Part shown: positions 20,820 through 32,455 of the stretch, in pieces
Layout: each line of letters opens with the position of its first letter
Position numbering within the stretch: position 1 is the first letter of the stretch
Assembly: GCA_964567575.1 (NCBI GenBank)
Contig: CAZMMZ010000008.1
Span: 9,960-50,141 of the forward strand
Source of the DNA: Candidatus Undinarchaeota archaeon
GTDB lineage: Archaea > Undinarchaeota > Undinarchaeia > Undinarchaeales > UBA543
Length of the DNA stretch: 40,182 bases
Reading direction: 5' to 3'
Notes under the pieces: model-generated
Database searches by the model: none
What the model saw: the letters and a program-made list of their open reading frames with translations, nothing else
Told to the model about the DNA's origin: nothing
Program-made: the position numbers and the translations under genes

Positions 20820-22490
20820 CTAAACTTTAAATCGTTCCAAAACAAATTTCCTATCCAAACTCAAAACAAATTGTGCTAATCTTGGTCCACGTTCTTTTCC
20901 AAGCAAAGCTAAATACGCAGATCTAAAGAGTTGTTTTGGTGTTAATTCTTCTTTTGCAAATTCATAAATAGCGCTTTCTAATTCCTTTTCTTTCCACTTC
21001 TTTGTTCCAATAATATCAGAGAGTTTGTTAAGTGCTTTTTTCTCTTCTTTGCTAAGTTCTTTAACTTCTGCAGGAACTTTTTCTTGTACAATGAACTTGT
21101 ATTGCTCTGGTGCAAATTCTTCAATCCATTGCTTTGCACGAGTAAGTCTTTGCTTTACATAATCTAAATCTTCTTTAGAAGTTTTAGCAGGAATATGTCC
21201 AGTTCCTTTTAAAATTTCTAGAGATTTTTTAATATCAAAGTTTGTTGATTGCACAACCATTGAAGCATGTCCTAAACCAATTTGCAGCGGCAGTTTCTTT
21301 GGAAGTGCTCCGACATGAGCTAATTCATATAATCGTTTTTCATGTGCAAGTTCGCGTTCATTTTCTTTTTTATCTTTTCCAAAATAAATCCTTTCTGTTG
21401 CATCATAACTATCATACAAAAGCAAGAGTTTATTTGAATCATATGGGTCAAAGTCAAGTACAGCGCGGGGTCTTGTTTTTATTAAAAGATATCGCAATAA
21501 TTTTGGAGGGACATGTTCTGAAATAGTTGCAAATCCAATTCCAGATCCTTTTGAAGTGCTCATCTTTTTCCCACCAACAGTAAAGAATTCATAACCTTTT
21601 CCTGTTTGTTCCCAATCACTTGGTAACGGTGGTCGATATTTGAAAACATCTGTTGCAATTTGAACTGCAACTGTTCTTGAACCACCGTGAGTAAAGTGGT
21701 CCTTCCCTGCAGTTTCATAAACAACTCCAATACTTGGCCACTTTGCTGCCCATTCTACTTTCCATGGGAACTTTCCACCACCATTGTAAGGTGAGCGTTC
21801 TCCTTCATAACCGCAACCCTGTGCCCATTTCACTAAGTCTTTTCTGCAGCGGTATTTGATAACTTCTTTTTCAGCATCCCATTCGTAAGCTTCTGTGGTT
21901 CCGATTTTTCCACACTTTTCACAGATTGGGTTGAATGGTAGTTTCTTTACACCAGCAGAGTCTTCTCCTGAAATTTGCCTGTAGATATCTTGAATCTGTT
22001 TAGTATTATCTAATGCAATTTTGATTGTGTCATTAAACAAGCCCTTGTCATAATTTTCTCCAGTACTTTGTAATTCAGCTTCAATTCCAAACTTATCAAA
22101 TTTTTCAGTGCATTCTTTAAAATAATAATCAGCATAACTTTTGTATCCTTTTTCAGGACTTGGAATATCTCTGAATGGCATTCCTAAATATTTTTCATAC
22201 TTTTCTTTTTTCAAATAATTTGGAAACTTGTCAAAAGGATCAATATCATCATTACCTAAAATAAATCTGCCTTTCACACCTTGATCTCGCAATGCTTTTG
22301 CAATAGCATCAGTTATTACCCAACCACGTCCTGAGCCAATATGTATATGCCCTGATGGTGTTTTTTCATCCATACAGATGTAACCGTTTTTCTTAACAAC
22401 TTTTTTTAAATCGTCATCTGATTCAACACGCTTAATAATTCTATGCGCCCATTGGTCTGCCCAGAAAAGGGATTCTTGTTCTGAATTCAT
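20820..22490 (-). CDS. lysS: Lysine--tRNA ligase, class I
   Basis: TPSGHIHIG, KFPWKVEWAAKW, AGKDH, KMSTSKG, GPRLAQF. Confidence 0.97.
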   Translation of the reverse strand: MNSEQESLFWADQWAHRIIKRVESDDDLKKVVKKNGYICMDEKTPSGHIHIGSGRGWVITDAIAKALRDQGVKGRFILGNDDIDPFDKFPNYLKKEKYEKYLGMPFRDIPSPEKGYKSYADYYFKECTEKFDKFGIEAELQSTGENYDKGLFNDTIKIALDNTKQIQDIYRQISGEDSAGVKKLPFNPICEKCGKIGTTEAYEWDAEKEVIKYRCRKDLVKWAQGCGYEGERSPYNGGGKFPWKVEWAAKWPSIGVVYETAGKDHFTHGGSRTVAVQIATDVFKYRPPLPSDWEQTGKGYEFFTVGGKKMSTSKGSGIGFATISEHVPPKLLRYLLIKTRPRAVLDFDPYDSNKLLLLYDSYDATERIYFGKDKKENERELAHEKRLYELAHVGALPKKLPLQIGLGHASMVVQSTNFDIKKSLEILKGTGHIPAKTSKEDLDYVKQRLTRAKQWIEEFAPEQYKFIVQEKVPAEVKELSKEEKKALNKLSDIIGTKKWKEKELESAIYEFAKEELTPKQLFRSAYLALLGKERGPRLAQFVLSLDRKFVLERFKV

Positions 22491-27727: not shown

Positions 27728-28808
27728 TTTTATATCTTAAAATCGCTGCAGCGCCACCAAGATTTTTAATTTGCTGACCTTCGCGTGTTTCTAGAGAAAG
27801 TAATTCGAATTTTGAGCCTGCATCTTGTGCTAGTTTCTCATATTCTTCAATAAGTGCATCTTCAGAATCTTCTGAAAGCATTGCAGTTTCAACAGCGCCT
27901 TGTGCTAAAGCACGTTTAACTTCTTCAACACCATATAAAGCAAGTCCGTCATCTTTTCCAAGATGGTCTAGGAATTTCGCAACAAGATTTCTTTCTTTTG
28001 TTATTTCAGCTTCTGCAATAATATCTTTAGATTTTTCTAAAAGTTCTGTAATTCCGGTCTCACCTGTATAACCAATATCCAGCACCCCAATAACTTTTTT
28101 CTTTATATGAGTTTCAAGGTTTCCTTCATCCATAAATTCTTCTTTTGTTGGTCCAGGGCCTCCAACAAGAATTCCTCTAAGGTCTTTAATATCTCTGAAA
28201 GTAGTATTTGCAACGTCAGCAATTTTTCTGTAAAACTCTTTTGCCATTCCTGCAATAACACGCTCGAAACGCTGAGCAGATTGACCACCAGCACGGAACT
28301 TTCCCGGGATTAATGAGTCAAAACTCTTCACAATTTCATAGCGCTTTCCTTTTAACAACGCAACATCAGCGTGTTGCCTTTCAACAACCACAATACCGTA
28401 TGTTTCAACATCCTCAAGCATTTCTTCAAGAGGTTCCATTACGAATTTCTGTGAGCATCTGTATAAATTTAAATTAAGTGGTCGTGGGGGTGTGATAGAT
28501 ACTATTGTAAAATCTTCTTTACCTTCTTGTTCTGAAACATTTCCACAAAAAATTGCAATTCCATTTTTAGGTGTTCTTTTTAAAAGTTTTAAATGTTGAA
28601 GAATTTTAGTTAAAGCAGTTGTAACATTCTTACGTGTGGTAGCGCTTTTAATATTAACGGCTGTTCCTTGCTCATCAGAAAGTCTACGTGTAACTTTATC
28701 TAAATTATAACCGTCTGCTGCATAAACTGTAATAAGTTCTGTATGACGTCCTCTATATGAAGTCAATTCTTTCAGCTTCTTTTTGAGATCTCTCATTTCA
28801 TCTGTCAT
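27723..28808 (-). CDS. prf1: Peptide chain release factor aRF1 (short form)
   Basis: NIKS, YRCSQKF and GGQ motifs. 361 aa. Confidence 0.96.
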   Translation of the reverse strand: MTDEMRDLKKKLKELTSYRGRHTELITVYAADGYNLDKVTRRLSDEQGTAVNIKSATTRKNVTTALTKILQHLKLLKRTPKNGIAIFCGNVSEQEGKEDFTIVSITPPRPLNLNLYRCSQKFVMEPLEEMLEDVETYGIVVVERQHADVALLKGKRYEIVKSFDSLIPGKFRAGGQSAQRFERVIAGMAKEFYRKIADVANTTFRDIKDLRGILVGGPGPTKEEFMDEGNLETHIKKKVIGVLDIGYTGETGITELLEKSKDIIAEAEITKERNLVAKFLDHLGKDDGLALYGVEEVKRALAQGAVETAMLSEDSEDALIEEYEKLAQDAGSKFELLSLETREGQQIKNLGGAAAILRYKM

Positions 28809-31249
28809 TCTTCTTTCTCGATTTCTACGTATATTTCAACAGGAAGCTCGCATTTTACTTTCTCTCCGTTTCCTTTTCCAAATTTAAGAGCCCCTGCTCT
28901 GGAAACGCCTTGTAAATCTAATTTAAACATTTCTATTACTTCTTTTAATTCAGAATCTTTTGTGTCAATAGAAATTGTTTTGACTTCTTTGCCAAGAGAA
29001 ATTCCGTTTTCTTGTTTGTATTGGCGGATTGAAGCAATTAATGTTTTCAAAGTTTCACCAGCCTTTTCAATTGCTTCATCTGGTTCTCCTGCGTCTGGCC
29101 ATTTGCAAATATGAATGCTCTTTGCTTTTTCAAATTTATTAAAATACATTTGATAAATTTCTTCAGTAACGTAAGGCATTATTGGTGCAAAGAGTTTGAG
29201 TATTGTTGAAGCAACTGTGTAAAGAGTATACTGCGCTGCTTCTTTTCCACCTTTTCCATATTTCTCTGGATTGTAAATTCTATCTTTAACAATTTCAAGA
29301 TAATAATCGCAGAATTCATGCCAGAATAATTTTTCTGTTTCTAGTTTTGCTTTTGAATATTCATATTTCTCAAAAGATTCTGTTGCGAATTTAATAACTG
29401 AATTAAGTCGTGAAAGAATCCATTTATCAACTTCTCGAAGTTTTGGTTTCTTTCCTGGTTTGTAACCTTCTAATTGCATTATTGCAAATTTACTAGCATT
29501 GAAAAGTTTAGTTGCGAATTTTAATCCTGTTGATAAATCTTTTTCTTGGAATGACAAGTCTTCACCCAGTGAAGAACCAGCTGCCCAAAAGCGTAACGCG
29601 TCAGCACTGTATTTTTCAATCATTTCATGTGGATCAACAACATTTCCTAAACTCTTTGACATTTTCTTTCCGTGAGGGTCAAGAGCCCAGCCACTTATCA
29701 TAACATCTTTCCAAGGATTTTTGTGTTCATGCATTTGCGCTTTAACAACAGTGTTGAACAACCAGAATGTAATAATGTCGTGAGCTTGTGGACGTAAATT
29801 CATAGGATAAATTTTGTCAAATTGTTTTGGGAATAATTCCACTGCAAGTTTTGGAGTAAGAGATGAGGTTGCCCAAGTATCCAGAACATCTTTTTCTGGT
29901 TCGAATTCTTTTGAACCGCATTTACAAGCTTTCTTTGGTTTATCTTTCAGTGGATCAATTGGTAAATCTTTTTCATCAGGCAAAAGCACTTCTCCACATT
30001 TTTTACAATACCAAACTGGAATTGGAACACCATAAAAGCGTTGTCTTGAGATACACCAATCCCATTGCAGACCTTCGACCCAATTCAGATATCTGTTTAT
30101 CATATGTTTTGGATACCAATTTAATTTTTCTCCAGCAACACGAAGATCTTCTTTAATATCAAGATATTTTATGAACCATTGTTTTGAATTAATAATTTCA
30201 ACAGGAGTTCCACAACGTTCATGAACATTAACAGGATGTTTTATTGGTTTTTGATTTACAAGCAATTTTTCTTTTTCTAAATCTTCAATTATTGCTTTGC
30301 GTGCTTCTCCAATTTTCATTCCAGAATATTTGCCTGCTTGTTTTGTCATTTTTCCTTTTGCAGTTATGCTCATAACAAGTGGCAAGTTGTGTGCTTTGTA
30401 CCATTCAATATCTGTTTGATCTCCAAATGTACAGCACATAACAATTCCAGTTCCTTTTTCCATATCAACGCGTTTATCTTCGCGAATTTCAACTTCAATA
30501 TCAAATAGTGGAACTTTTGCTTTCTTTCCAATTAATTTTTTATAACGAGAATCGTCTGGATGTGCGAAAATCGCAACGCAGCTTGGTAGTAATTCTGGGC
30601 GCGTTGTTGCAATAACAAGGTCTTTTCCATTTTCAAGTTTGAAAATAATATCATTAAAAGTACTGTCAAGTTCTTTATCAACAAGTTCTACTTGAGCAAT
30701 AGCCATGTGACATTCCGGACACCACATTGTTGGAGCTTCTTTTTGATATTCTCTGCCGCTATTGTACAAATCAATAAAAGATTTCTGAGAAATTTTTTGA
30801 GAATGTTTGTTAATTGTTGTGTAATAAATATTATAATCTGCAGAAATTCCAATTTTTCTCCAATCTGCTGTGTATTTTGGACGCAATTCTTTTTCAAGAG
30901 TTGTAAGACAAAATTTTACAAATTCTTCACGAGACATATCATTATGATTAATCTTTTTTTCTCGTTCTATTAATCGCTCTGTTGCAAGACCATTATCATC
31001 TGTTCCAAAAGGATAGAACATATTGAATCCTTGCATACGTTTGAAGCGAGCAACAAAGTCCATTTGTGAATAAGAAAAGGCATGGCCTATATGCATGCGC
31101 CCAGAAACCGTTGGCGGCGGCGTATCAATTGAATAGATTTCTTTTTTGCTATTTGGATCAAATCTGAAGATGTCCTCATCTTCCCACCACTTTGCCCATT
31201 TAGGCTCAGCTTCTTTTGCATCATATCTTTTTGGTAATTCTTTTTTCAT
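28805..31249 (-). CDS. valS: Valine--tRNA ligase, archaeal type
   Basis: DTPPPTVSGRMHIGH, editing domain (ATTRPELL, GTGIVMCCTFGDQTD), DWCISRQR, KMSKS. ATG at 31249. Confidence 0.97.
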   Translation of the reverse strand: MKKELPKRYDAKEAEPKWAKWWEDEDIFRFDPNSKKEIYSIDTPPPTVSGRMHIGHAFSYSQMDFVARFKRMQGFNMFYPFGTDDNGLATERLIEREKKINHNDMSREEFVKFCLTTLEKELRPKYTADWRKIGISADYNIYYTTINKHSQKISQKSFIDLYNSGREYQKEAPTMWCPECHMAIAQVELVDKELDSTFNDIIFKLENGKDLVIATTRPELLPSCVAIFAHPDDSRYKKLIGKKAKVPLFDIEVEIREDKRVDMEKGTGIVMCCTFGDQTDIEWYKAHNLPLVMSITAKGKMTKQAGKYSGMKIGEARKAIIEDLEKEKLLVNQKPIKHPVNVHERCGTPVEIINSKQWFIKYLDIKEDLRVAGEKLNWYPKHMINRYLNWVEGLQWDWCISRQRFYGVPIPVWYCKKCGEVLLPDEKDLPIDPLKDKPKKACKCGSKEFEPEKDVLDTWATSSLTPKLAVELFPKQFDKIYPMNLRPQAHDIITFWLFNTVVKAQMHEHKNPWKDVMISGWALDPHGKKMSKSLGNVVDPHEMIEKYSADALRFWAAGSSLGEDLSFQEKDLSTGLKFATKLFNASKFAIMQLEGYKPGKKPKLREVDKWILSRLNSVIKFATESFEKYEYSKAKLETEKLFWHEFCDYYLEIVKDRIYNPEKYGKGGKEAAQYTLYTVASTILKLFAPIMPYVTEEIYQMYFNKFEKAKSIHICKWPDAGEPDEAIEKAGETLKTLIASIRQYKQENGISLGKEVKTISIDTKDSELKEVIEMFKLDLQGVSRAGALKFGKGNGEKVKCELPVEIYVEIEKEE

Positions 31250-31349
31250 TAGACCCCAACTCCACAGCAATCAAAACTGTGAAAAAGCAAAGCTAGATCC
31301 CCTCATGGGGGTCATACGACAACCATTACATTTGTTTTCATTTCTAGCT
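31250..31349 (-). promoter_or_regulatory. About 100-nt structured 5' leader of valS (putative attenuator)
   Basis: BRE/TATA GAAAAAC-TTATAAAG at 31385-31371 predicts a TSS near 31349. Contains a Val-rich uORF and several mutually exclusive stems. Confidence 0.7.
31312..31341 (-). CDS. Putative valS leader peptide MKTNVMVVV*
   Basis: ATG AAA ACA AAT GTA ATG GTT GTC GTA TGA. 4 of 9 codons are Val, three in tandem before the stop. Confidence 0.7.
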   Translation of the reverse strand: MKTNVMVVV

Positions 31350-31396
31350 AAGACTGTATTGAAATAGTTACTTTATAAGTTTTTCAGATATTGTTT

Positions 31397-32455
31397 TTAA
31401 TGAAATCCAGGGTCACAGCAACAGGAATTAAATGGTAGTTCTTCATTAATACATTCCATATCTGCCATTGGATTTGCTAAATAAAATCCAAATTCTCCTT
31501 GGGAACCTGCACAATCTGCCCATGGTTCTGGTTCTGCTATATCTCCGCAGAATCCGCCTGGAGAGCGTGCATCTAAATAACAATTACCTTCACAACTCAT
31601 TGGATCTGCCTCTTTACATTTACCAGCCGAACAATACCAATTCTCTCCATATTCTTCATCACATATTAGTGGATCATTATCATTACTTGCACACATATCA
31701 TTATCATTACAATAATATTCAACTAAACCACCAACATCACAATAATCAGTTGAAGCTCCTTCAACATCTGTACAAGTTCCTTTTTGTAGATAATTAATTC
31801 CTCCATCTGTATCCGTACAAGCTGCTTCAGGAAAATCATCTGCATCATTTGGATCTGTTCCTGCTTCATATTCTTCTAAGTCAGTCCAACCATCTCCATC
31901 ATGATCTTGATTATTTGGAATACATCTTCCCATGTAGCATTTTCCTTCTGGGGCACAAACTTGAACCATTTCACTACACATTCCACTTTCGTCATTTGAA
32001 CACCAGAATTCAGTTAACATATCTCCAAAGTTTCCATCAAAACAAACATCATGATGCGATGCTCCTAAAATATCAATACAATTTCCTGCTATAATATAGA
32101 CTTCGCCATTATCTGAATCCGAACAAACTGGTGGAACTTCTGGTTCATCATCTCCATTTTCTGGATCTTCCTCTTCTATGGGATCTTCTTCAATTGGTTC
32201 CTCTTCAGGTTTTTCTTCTTTTGGTTTTTCTCCAGGAGTGTCTTTTTCTTTTTCTGGTATTATTTCATCACCTTCAATTTCAAACCCAGTTCCAGAATCT
32301 CCTGATATAATTTCTGTTCGCCTGTCAAGTATGATTTGATATTGTGGATACATTTTACCAAGGACAAATGCACCAGTAATTAATGCAGCTATAATTGTAA
32401 CAGCGAGTGTAATAAAAATAATTATTTTCAAAGTAGATTCTGTTTCTTTTTTCAT
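31397..32455 (-). CDS. Membrane-anchored acidic Cys-rich surface protein
   Basis: N-terminal TM, E/P/D-rich stalk, two Cx(D)(S/T)DxG repeats flanking a DHDGDGWTDLEEYEAGTDP Ca-binding-type motif, Cys-rich C-terminus. Confidence 0.8.
   Translation of the reverse strand: MKKETESTLKIIIFITLAVTIIAALITGAFVLGKMYPQYQIILDRRTEIISGDSGTGFEIEGDEIIPEKEKDTPGEKPKEEKPEEEPIEEDPIEEEDPENGDDEPEVPPVCSDSDNGEVYIIAGNCIDILGASHHDVCFDGNFGDMLTEFWCSNDESGMCSEMVQVCAPEGKCYMGRCIPNNQDHDGDGWTDLEEYEAGTDPNDADDFPEAACTDTDGGINYLQKGTCTDVEGASTDYCDVGGLVEYYCNDNDMCASNDNDPLICDEEYGENWYCSAGKCKEADPMSCEGNCYLDARSPGGFCGDIAEPEPWADCAGSQGEFGFYLANPMADMECINEELPFNSCCCDPGFH

Follow-up and report, generated by a model that had tools for sequence, protein, structure and literature searches.

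Ribosome-mediated attenuation is a textbook bacterial mechanism, which relies on the coupling of transcription with translation and on hairpin terminators. In the trpL, hisL, ilvL and thrL leaders, tandem regulatory codons lie near the end of a leader peptide and the stalling of the ribosome decides how the RNA folds. These leaders serve biosynthetic operons and use a four-segment pairing. Synthetase genes can be governed in the same way, i.e., the pheM-pheST system of Escherichia coli and the trpS and leuS attenuators predicted in Streptomyces (PMC1262725), where a leader open reading frame (ORF) rich in cognate codons, a hairpin and a U tract come before the synthetase gene and the feedback passes through the charged tRNA. 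In mycobacteria, poly-Cys small ORFs (sORFs) with consecutive cognate codons form the leaderless first cistron at the several loci of a regulon, and the Cys tract masks the Shine-Dalgarno (SD) sequence of the next gene (Canestrari et al., bioRxiv 10.1101/834739). The T-boxes of Firmicutes, found before ileS, valS and cysS, answer to the same charged/uncharged tRNA signal; they bind the tRNA directly and are untranslated. Here, we analyze a stretch of 40,182 nucleotides from a Candidatus Undinarchaeota archaeon (hereafter the window; GenBank assembly GCA_964567575.1, contig CAZMMZ010000008.1, positions 9,960 to 50,141), in which a very short valine-rich upstream ORF (uORF) precedes valS, the gene of the valine--tRNA ligase (ValRS). 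Judging from sequence comparisons, the Undinarchaeota that carry such a leader very probably gauge their amino-acid supply by means of the ribosome, as bacteria do.

The valS element shares with the pheM-pheST type the feedback logic that we propose, and with the T-boxes both target genes and signal, whereas it is, unlike a T-box, an ORF with a conserved start, frame and stop. The pheM-pheST type is bacterial, is read by a bacterial RNA polymerase and possesses a defined antiterminator. On the contrary, the Undinarchaeota leader has a TATA/BRE (B recognition element) promoter and a leaderless or near-leaderless uORF. Since no conserved antiterminator was found in it, the ribosome would itself block the terminator stem, and termination would occur at an archaeal oligo-U. 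Moreover, compared with trpL and its kind, the leaders described here are much shorter (8–15 codons) and precede synthetase and tRNA genes. The preliminary description of this DNA had considered that leader-peptide control of a tRNA synthetase is not an established archaeal mechanism, and our full-text searches found no published archaeal leader-peptide attenuator. A 2026 cross-domain review of termination (PMC13675443) makes no mention of attenuation, and a tool paper (PMC10219788) says briefly that archaea also use uORFs for regulation, with no example of leader-peptide attenuation.

The valine-rich leader ORF of valS and its conservation

The valS gene occupies positions 28805–31249 of the minus strand, with its ATG at 31249. 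Its 814-aa product carries the Pfam domains tRNA-synt_1 and Anticodon_1 and scores 1082 bits against the NCBIfam valS equivalog NF009687 (cut-off 738). The uORF lies on the same strand, at 31341–31312, separated from valS by 62 nt. It reads ATG AAA ACA AAT GTA ATG GTT GTC GTA TGA, i.e., MKTNVMVVV and a stop, exactly as first described, with the three tandem Val codons GTT GTC GTA. The Val codons are GTA (31329–31327), GTT (31323–31321), GTC (31320–31318) and GTA (31317–31315), followed by the TGA stop (31314–31312); valine thus takes four of the five final sense codons, with three Val codon types. The source genome (G000) is an assembly of 18 contigs totalling 745 kb and about 82% complete; its G+C content is 34% and it encodes an archaeal signal recognition particle RNA. 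Its genus-mates have been deposited as Candidatus Undinarchaeota, and its DNA is present in many seawater and vent metagenomes.

We gathered the valS upstream regions of 30 related genomes, 63 named GTDB contigs, 56 metagenome contigs and 7 contigs reached through ValRS homologues. This search, which the preliminary description had called for, shows that the Val codons are kept: seven distinct valS leaders have a uORF of 8–9 codons with at least three Val (3–4) among the last five. They come from three members of the genus, one genome of another family and three metagenome contigs, and their ValRS are 60–100% identical to that of the window. Besides MKTNVMVVV in G000 (100%), the peptides are MNTKVMVVV in the contig L222 (70%), MITNTVVNV in G002 (82%), MTSNIVVVI in G001 (80%), MSNSSVVVV in G004, the genome of another family (60%), MASVVVVA in L220/L221 (69%) and MTSIVVVA in L223 (64%). 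The N-terminal residues drift, and the Val run ends 0–1 codon before the stop in all seven leaders. A function of the peptide itself is unlikely because only the Val run is kept. The 9-codon leaders align without gaps from ATG to stop, and one column reads GTT/GTA/GTC/GTT, which is synonymous variation.

The choice of Val codons in the leaders also departs from that of the genes. Among 25 leader Val codons, GTA is found 12 times, GTC 7 times, GTT 6 times and GTG never, while the genes of G000 use GTT for 61% and GTC for 6% of their valines. The leaders are thus enriched in less-used Val codons, and codons for both Val isoacceptor types occur in them. Such valine-rich uORFs are rare elsewhere. 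Only four of the 328 intergenic ATG uORFs of 4–20 codons in G000 are Val-rich, and two of these are the valS uORF and a nested MVVV, which leaves 2 among the other 326. A further MVRVVV uORF, on contig C1, was rejected as chance, being apparently antisense to a coding sequence. Before 109 other DPANN valS genes, none of the 100 short uORFs is Val-rich. From these sequence comparisons, we conclude that the Val-rich uORF before valS is not due to chance. The short ORF of cognate codons in the 5' leader, which characterizes an attenuator, is found in all seven leaders.

Upstream of the leader, a gene for a 353-aa product ends with its stop at 31397; the family search of this product gave no match. 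Weak C/D-box small-RNA-like Rfam matches lie at 31380–31451 of the minus strand (SNORD18, 24.5 bits for a gathering score of 41, E = 0.018). These sub-threshold matches lie across the valS promoter and the upstream ORF's 3' end, outside the leader.

Promoter, leader structure and proposed attenuation

The host being an archaeon, a scan for sigma-70 promoters and terminators was set aside. The valS promoter (31371–31385, minus strand) is made of an A-rich BRE-like stretch and the TATA-like CTTATAAAG (31379–31371), as recognized from the sequence and from the spacing in relatives. In 344 upstream regions of G000, the spacing between a TTTAWATA-like box and the ATG peaks sharply at 30–31 nt, so that most mRNAs of this genome are probably leaderless. 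In front of the uORF, the TATA-like 8-mer stands 38 nt from the ATG. Since this exceeds the genomic mode by 7–8 nt, the predicted 5' untranslated region (UTR) is of about that length and the valS transcript would start near 31349, which agrees with the TATA position and the start just before the uORF that had been proposed. The relatives show comparable arrangements: a CTTATAAR box lies 38–40 nt ahead of the uORF ATG in G001 and G002, and TTTAAACA at 36 nt in L222. For G000 and its three closest relatives, one thus predicts a UTR of 6–10 nt. In G004, L220 and L223, the box-to-uORF spacing is 29–31 nt, and their uORF is therefore probably leaderless. No TATA-like box was found in the sequence between the uORF and valS.

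The RNA predicted to follow contains several secondary structures. A first stem, P1, encloses the uORF: its 5' arm AGCUAGA (31343–31349), which in G000 is the UTR stretch at the predicted 5' end of the transcript, pairs in the minimum free energy (MFE) and centroid folds with the 3' arm UCUAGCU (31291–31297), which begins 14 nt past the stop. In G004, L220 and L223, the P1 5' arm falls within codons 1–3. A second hairpin, P2 (CCCC-AUGA-GGGG, 31299–31310), comes directly past the stop codon. The U-rich tract UUGCUUUUU (31282–31290) abuts P1 and is the candidate termination site, a role suggested by its conserved spacing. It is followed by a third hairpin, P3 (CACAG-UUUUGAUUG-CUGUG, 31263–31281), which has a U-rich loop and is restricted to the genus clade, and by an SD-like purine stretch (31251–31263, with GGAG at 31263–31260 and GGGG at 31257–31254) before the valS ATG.

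A stem enclosing the uORF is present in the MFE fold of all seven valS leaders, and also in the Ile and Cys leaders described below. In G001, P1 reads AGCUAGU/ACUAGCU, i.e., one compensatory pair, and the enclosing stems of the distant leaders have unrelated sequences (AUGAGC/GCUCAU, GGCAAG/CUUGCC, CAAGC/GCUUG). MAFFT alignments of these distant leaders misplace the P1 arms. The counterparts of P2 in relatives (ACCCU-GCA-AGGGU, CCCCU-GUGU-AGGGG, CGGG-UUUAG-CCCG) keep the pairing and change the sequence. P3 shows a compensatory change in L222 (CACAAA/UUUGUG) and is absent from G004, L220 and L223. The most regular feature is the spacing. In all seven leaders, 12–17 nt separate the stop from the P1 3' arm and 21–25 nt separate it from the U tract. 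As a background, the first T tract falls within a 19–27 nt window in 5.3% of 318 uORFs. A stem followed by a U tract is thus found between the leader ORF and valS; the stem is moderately above shuffled sequences and termination at this place is predicted. Altogether, the folding predictions provide moderate evidence for the leader stem. Because its P1 3' arm directly adjoins the oligo-U tract, the leader resembles a hairpin-assisted terminator. Oligo-T makes the archaeal RNA polymerase stop, and the effect can be strengthened by a hairpin (Santangelo and Reeve 2006, cited through the review PMC13675443).

Other structured elements were considered for the same RNA. When the valS leader was compared with Rfam, no family, the T-box (RF00230) among them, reached its gathering score or even E = 1, and a T-box riboswitch was rejected. 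Since the loops of P2 show no conservation, an anticodon mimic was rejected too. Nor do the hairpin and U tract terminate the upstream gene: the neighbors differ among genomes, and the gene upstream in G001 is divergent.

We think it probable, from the arrangement of these features, that the valS leader is a valine gauge read by the ribosome, which would terminate transcription at the U tract when Val-tRNA is plentiful. Ribosome-mediated attenuation, the reading first put forward for this locus, is thus supported by the conserved Val uORF, by cognate uORFs at sister loci and by a stem and U tract at a fixed distance. The valS mRNA would start about 100 nt before valS, and a ribosome would load at its 5' end while the polymerase is still on the leader, the mini-ORF allowing it to sense charged tRNA-Val. 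When Val-tRNA is plentiful, the nine codons would be read, the ribosome would leave, P1 and P2 would fold and the polymerase would stop at the U tract. When Val-tRNA is scarce, the ribosome would wait on codons 5–9, with a footprint covering P2 and reaching the 3' arm. P1 could not close because the stalled ribosome would sit inside its loop; the stem would stay open and the polymerase would read into valS, producing more ValRS. In this model, the ribosome itself is the antiterminator and no alternative helix is needed. From the sequences, we infer where the transcript starts, that the uORF is translated, that transcription terminates at the U tract and in which direction the system responds. 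That shortage leads to more ValRS, the homeostatic direction, is an assumption made from the analogy of pheM-pheST and the T-boxes.

Cognate leaders at ileS, cysS and hisS

The scan of other synthetase genes for cognate-residue uORFs, which had been suggested as a check, revealed three more loci in the same order: Ile before ileS, Cys before tRNA-Cys-cysS and His before tRNA-His-hisS. Among species representatives, this order is sampled by 13 genomes and the phylum by 17. In G000, a genome-wide scan identified a leaderless uORF, MNTDTSIIIIIR and a stop, with the codons ATT ATC ATA ATA ATA, 85 nt upstream of ileS on contig C2 (leader at L150:3223-3363, minus strand; relatives L160-L171). Of the 13 genomes that represent the order, 10 have an Ile-rich uORF upstream of ileS; these 10 belong to four of the five families. 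In the rest of the phylum, sampled by four genomes, there is none. The peptides are MNTDTSIIIIIR, MNTDTQIIIIIR, MNTDSEIIIIR, MSAISGTISIIRE, MSTISGIISIIIRE, MSTIIETIIIRN, MARTASIIIVIGIVA, MKSTASIIIVIGIVA and MVYTAGIIIAIGIAA. Downstream of the Ile uORF, a hairpin of conserved sequence, GUGCUCC-UUUUCAAAAAUUUCC-GGGGCAC, is found in 10/10 genomes. The stem arms of the ileS leaders of family f2 (GGCACGCAC/GUGCGAGCC, GCACCGC/GCGGUGC and GGUUUACAC/GUGUAAACC) differ in sequence between lineages. In the one genome G000, the ileS leader could also form the competing pairings CACUAG:CUAGUG and UUCUAGUG:CACUGGAA.

On contig C11 of G000, a poly-Cys uORF, MKSKTFDCCCCCQ and a stop (L173:269-310), is followed by a U tract, by tRNA-Cys(GCA) (L173:372-444) and by cysS (490–1968); the relatives are L178, L187 and L186. 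The same tRNA-Cys/cysS arrangement comes with MEPKTIECCCCCC in G002 and MKSELCCCC in G005, each ending in a stop, which makes three genomes read through. G008 has the same downstream leader and tRNA-Cys, its uORF lying outside the stretch read. In G001, cysS has a different upstream neighbor. This leader closely resembles the mycobacterial poly-Cys sORFs, with the difference that these mask the SD sequence of the next gene with their Cys tract, whereas no conserved pairing with the valS start is seen here and two of the leaders precede tRNAs. The stop-to-U-tract distance is 20 nt in the Cys leader and 23 nt in the ileS leader.

The third locus, tRNA-His(GTG) with hisS, has an upstream uORF ending in (D/E)CLH plus 1–2 codons in 8 genomes of four of the five families, with the changes GAT/GAG, TGC/TGT and CAC/CAT, by which it varies synonymously. 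On contig C3 of G000, the uORF is at L205:158-193, tRNA-His at 271–345 and hisS at 370–1662 (relatives L207-L218). In the f3 genome G004, no (D/E)CLH uORF was found within the 300 nt read before hisS. As the His uORF has a single His codon, it may be an arrest-type or a single-codon sensor. Both the Cys and His leaders precede tRNA genes. Hence, translation initiation cannot be their output, and an effect on the transcript is favored.

The genome-wide picture also qualifies the idea that the layout is specific to valS. It holds against proS (771–2207) and lysS (20820–22490), the two genes of the window with which valS had been compared, which have a TATA 29–31 nt before the ATG and no leader; it does not hold in the genome as a whole, since ileS, tRNA-Cys/cysS and tRNA-His/hisS have leaders. 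At least 13 other synthetase genes of G000 look leaderless and none of these has a leader ORF: proS, lysS, thrS, leuS, gltX, argS, alaS, metS, pheS, a Gly-type gene, two Asp/Asn-type genes and one Tyr/Trp-type gene. In 10 of the 13, a TATA-like 8-mer passes the scan at 26–33 nt before the ATG, and in the other three a weaker box was seen by eye; the count leaves out a second gene of the Tyr/Trp family (contig C4, 22129–22971). No Thr uORF was found before thrS. No uORF was seen before leuS either, where a tRNA-like sequence lies directly upstream. In G000, this adjoining sequence (contig C4, L157:270-400) has an apparent long intron and no ARAGORN call.

Several observations accompany these loci. 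A CTTTTCAAAAAYTTY word in a hairpin loop (L150:3283-3297, L173 about 331–345, L205:218-232) and a nearby CTAGTGA word are common to the Ile, Cys and His leaders. At the 3' ends of ordinary genes, the TTTTCA-type word of the leaders shows no enrichment, and the hits of a loose genome search for CTTTTCAAAAATTTC were mostly noise from coding strands. In family f2, ileS, a tRNA-like gene, a conserved GC-rich structured spacer and valS follow each other head to tail (G003 L010, G010 L011 and G007 L013). The tRNA-like gene has one or more apparent introns and no ARAGORN call, and valS has no leader of its own in these three genomes. The ileS leader peptide of G003 and G010 (IIIVIGIVA) contains both Val and Ile codons, and that of G007 has Ala at the Val positions. 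Finally, a uORF encoding MRLVIII and a stop, on contig C2 of G000 (65122–65145, minus strand), lies 29 nt past a perfect TTTATATA box, a leaderless spacing, and 50 nt before the gene of the A-type ATP synthase subunit H; it is perhaps there by chance.

Taking the four loci together, the chances seem to us about even that they form a regulon of the Undinarchaeales, in which leaderless or near-leaderless Val, Ile, Cys and His mini-ORFs would control valS, ileS, tRNA-Cys/cysS and tRNA-His/hisS by coupled transcription-translation attenuation. In such a regulon, the cognate codons would be placed 0–3 codons before the stop and the stem enclosing each mini-ORF would abut an oligo-U 20–25 nt downstream.

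Competing explanations and significance

Several points weigh against attenuation at valS. As the seven leaders amount to only about three or four independent lineages, their counts are not those of seven independent trials. Three of the five families of the order lack the valS leader, as does one relative whose ValRS is 70% identical, and the leader is thus dispensable. The G000 leader is no more stable than shuffled sequences (z = −0.6), and dinucleotide shuffles give an enclosing stem of equal size in 9–31% of cases; we consequently do not lean on folding energy. Within the genus, P1 covaries at one pair only. A conserved antiterminator helix, which belongs to the definition of an attenuator, was sought across the seven valS leaders and none was found. 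Archaeal termination needs no hairpin, and the U tract might stop the polymerase regardless of the ribosome. The uORF of the genus clade has a 6–10-nt UTR without an SD sequence, which makes the efficiency of its initiation uncertain, and no SD-like element precedes valS itself in G001 and G004. None of the runs listed as containing G000 DNA is an RNA run. Population variation gave no test, since contigs from four marine and vent metagenomes are identical at 31150–31480.

One may first ask whether the regulated step is the translation of valS. The ribosome on the uORF could unmask the SD sequence of valS or control reinitiation, transcription not being stopped. At the uORF stop, G000 has GACCCC, the complement of the GGGGUC (31257–31252) that lies 5–10 nt before the valS ATG, and an SD-like stretch is found in five of the seven leaders. 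As mRNAs are mostly leaderless in this genome, a gene located 60 nt inside its mRNA may need ribosomes delivered by the uORF, and the mycobacterial leaderless poly-Cys sORFs do act through SD masking (bioRxiv 10.1101/834739). However, the pairing between stop and SD is seen in G000 only and a G-rich element is lacking ahead of valS in G001 and G004, so that masking of the mycobacterial type by the codon tract was rejected. Moreover, the sister Cys and His leaders precede untranslated tRNA genes, and what is conserved is the U tract at 21–25 nt. A translational output is for these reasons rather unlikely in our opinion. The conserved spacing itself lends something to an inverted logic, in which a fast ribosome arriving at the stop pushes the paused polymerase through the U tract and a stalled ribosome leads to termination, so that valS would follow the translational capacity instead of compensating a shortage. 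Indeed, with 21–25 nt between stop and U tract, the P site of a terminating ribosome is about 34–36 nt behind an RNA 3' end located where the U tract finishes, which is roughly the contact distance in bacterial collided expressomes, and archaeal oligo-U termination has no need of a hairpin. Yet this would be a positive feedback on shortage, opposite to every known control of synthetase genes (T-box, pheM-pheST), and it leaves no role for the conserved enclosing stem and P2. We hold it to be improbable.

The leader might also be no sensor at all, i.e., a structured non-coding leader, the terminator of an upstream gene or an RNA bound by a protein or a tRNA, in which the Val codons would be incidental. 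Short ORFs are common in this AT-rich genome (328 were counted), and the significance of the fold is weak. On the other hand, seven leaders that differ in nucleotides and stems have retained the ATG, reading frame, length and Val run, and at four different loci the repeated or conserved residue fits the downstream gene. The upstream neighbor varies, to the point of being divergent in G001. In Rfam, no family, not even the T-box, hits the leader up to E = 1, and the loops of P2 are not conserved. Such a leader is highly improbable.

Returning to attenuation by the ribosome, its principle is shared with the bacterial attenuators; the domain of life, the transcription machinery, the minimal leaderless architecture and the tRNA-gene targets differ. 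If our reading is true, these leaders would give the Archaea their first attenuators of this type, with tRNA genes among the targets. It would mean that a trailing ribosome, together with a stem of the nascent RNA, can gate the termination of archaeal polymerase at oligo-U. As the elements are short (about 70 nt) and exist in four amino-acid flavors, they would make the coupling of transcription and translation in archaea directly testable. It would also mean that a genome-reduced and probably host-dependent DPANN cell, devoid of amino-acid biosynthesis, still keeps track of how well its individual tRNAs are charged, and that this measurement sets the levels of both synthetases and tRNAs.

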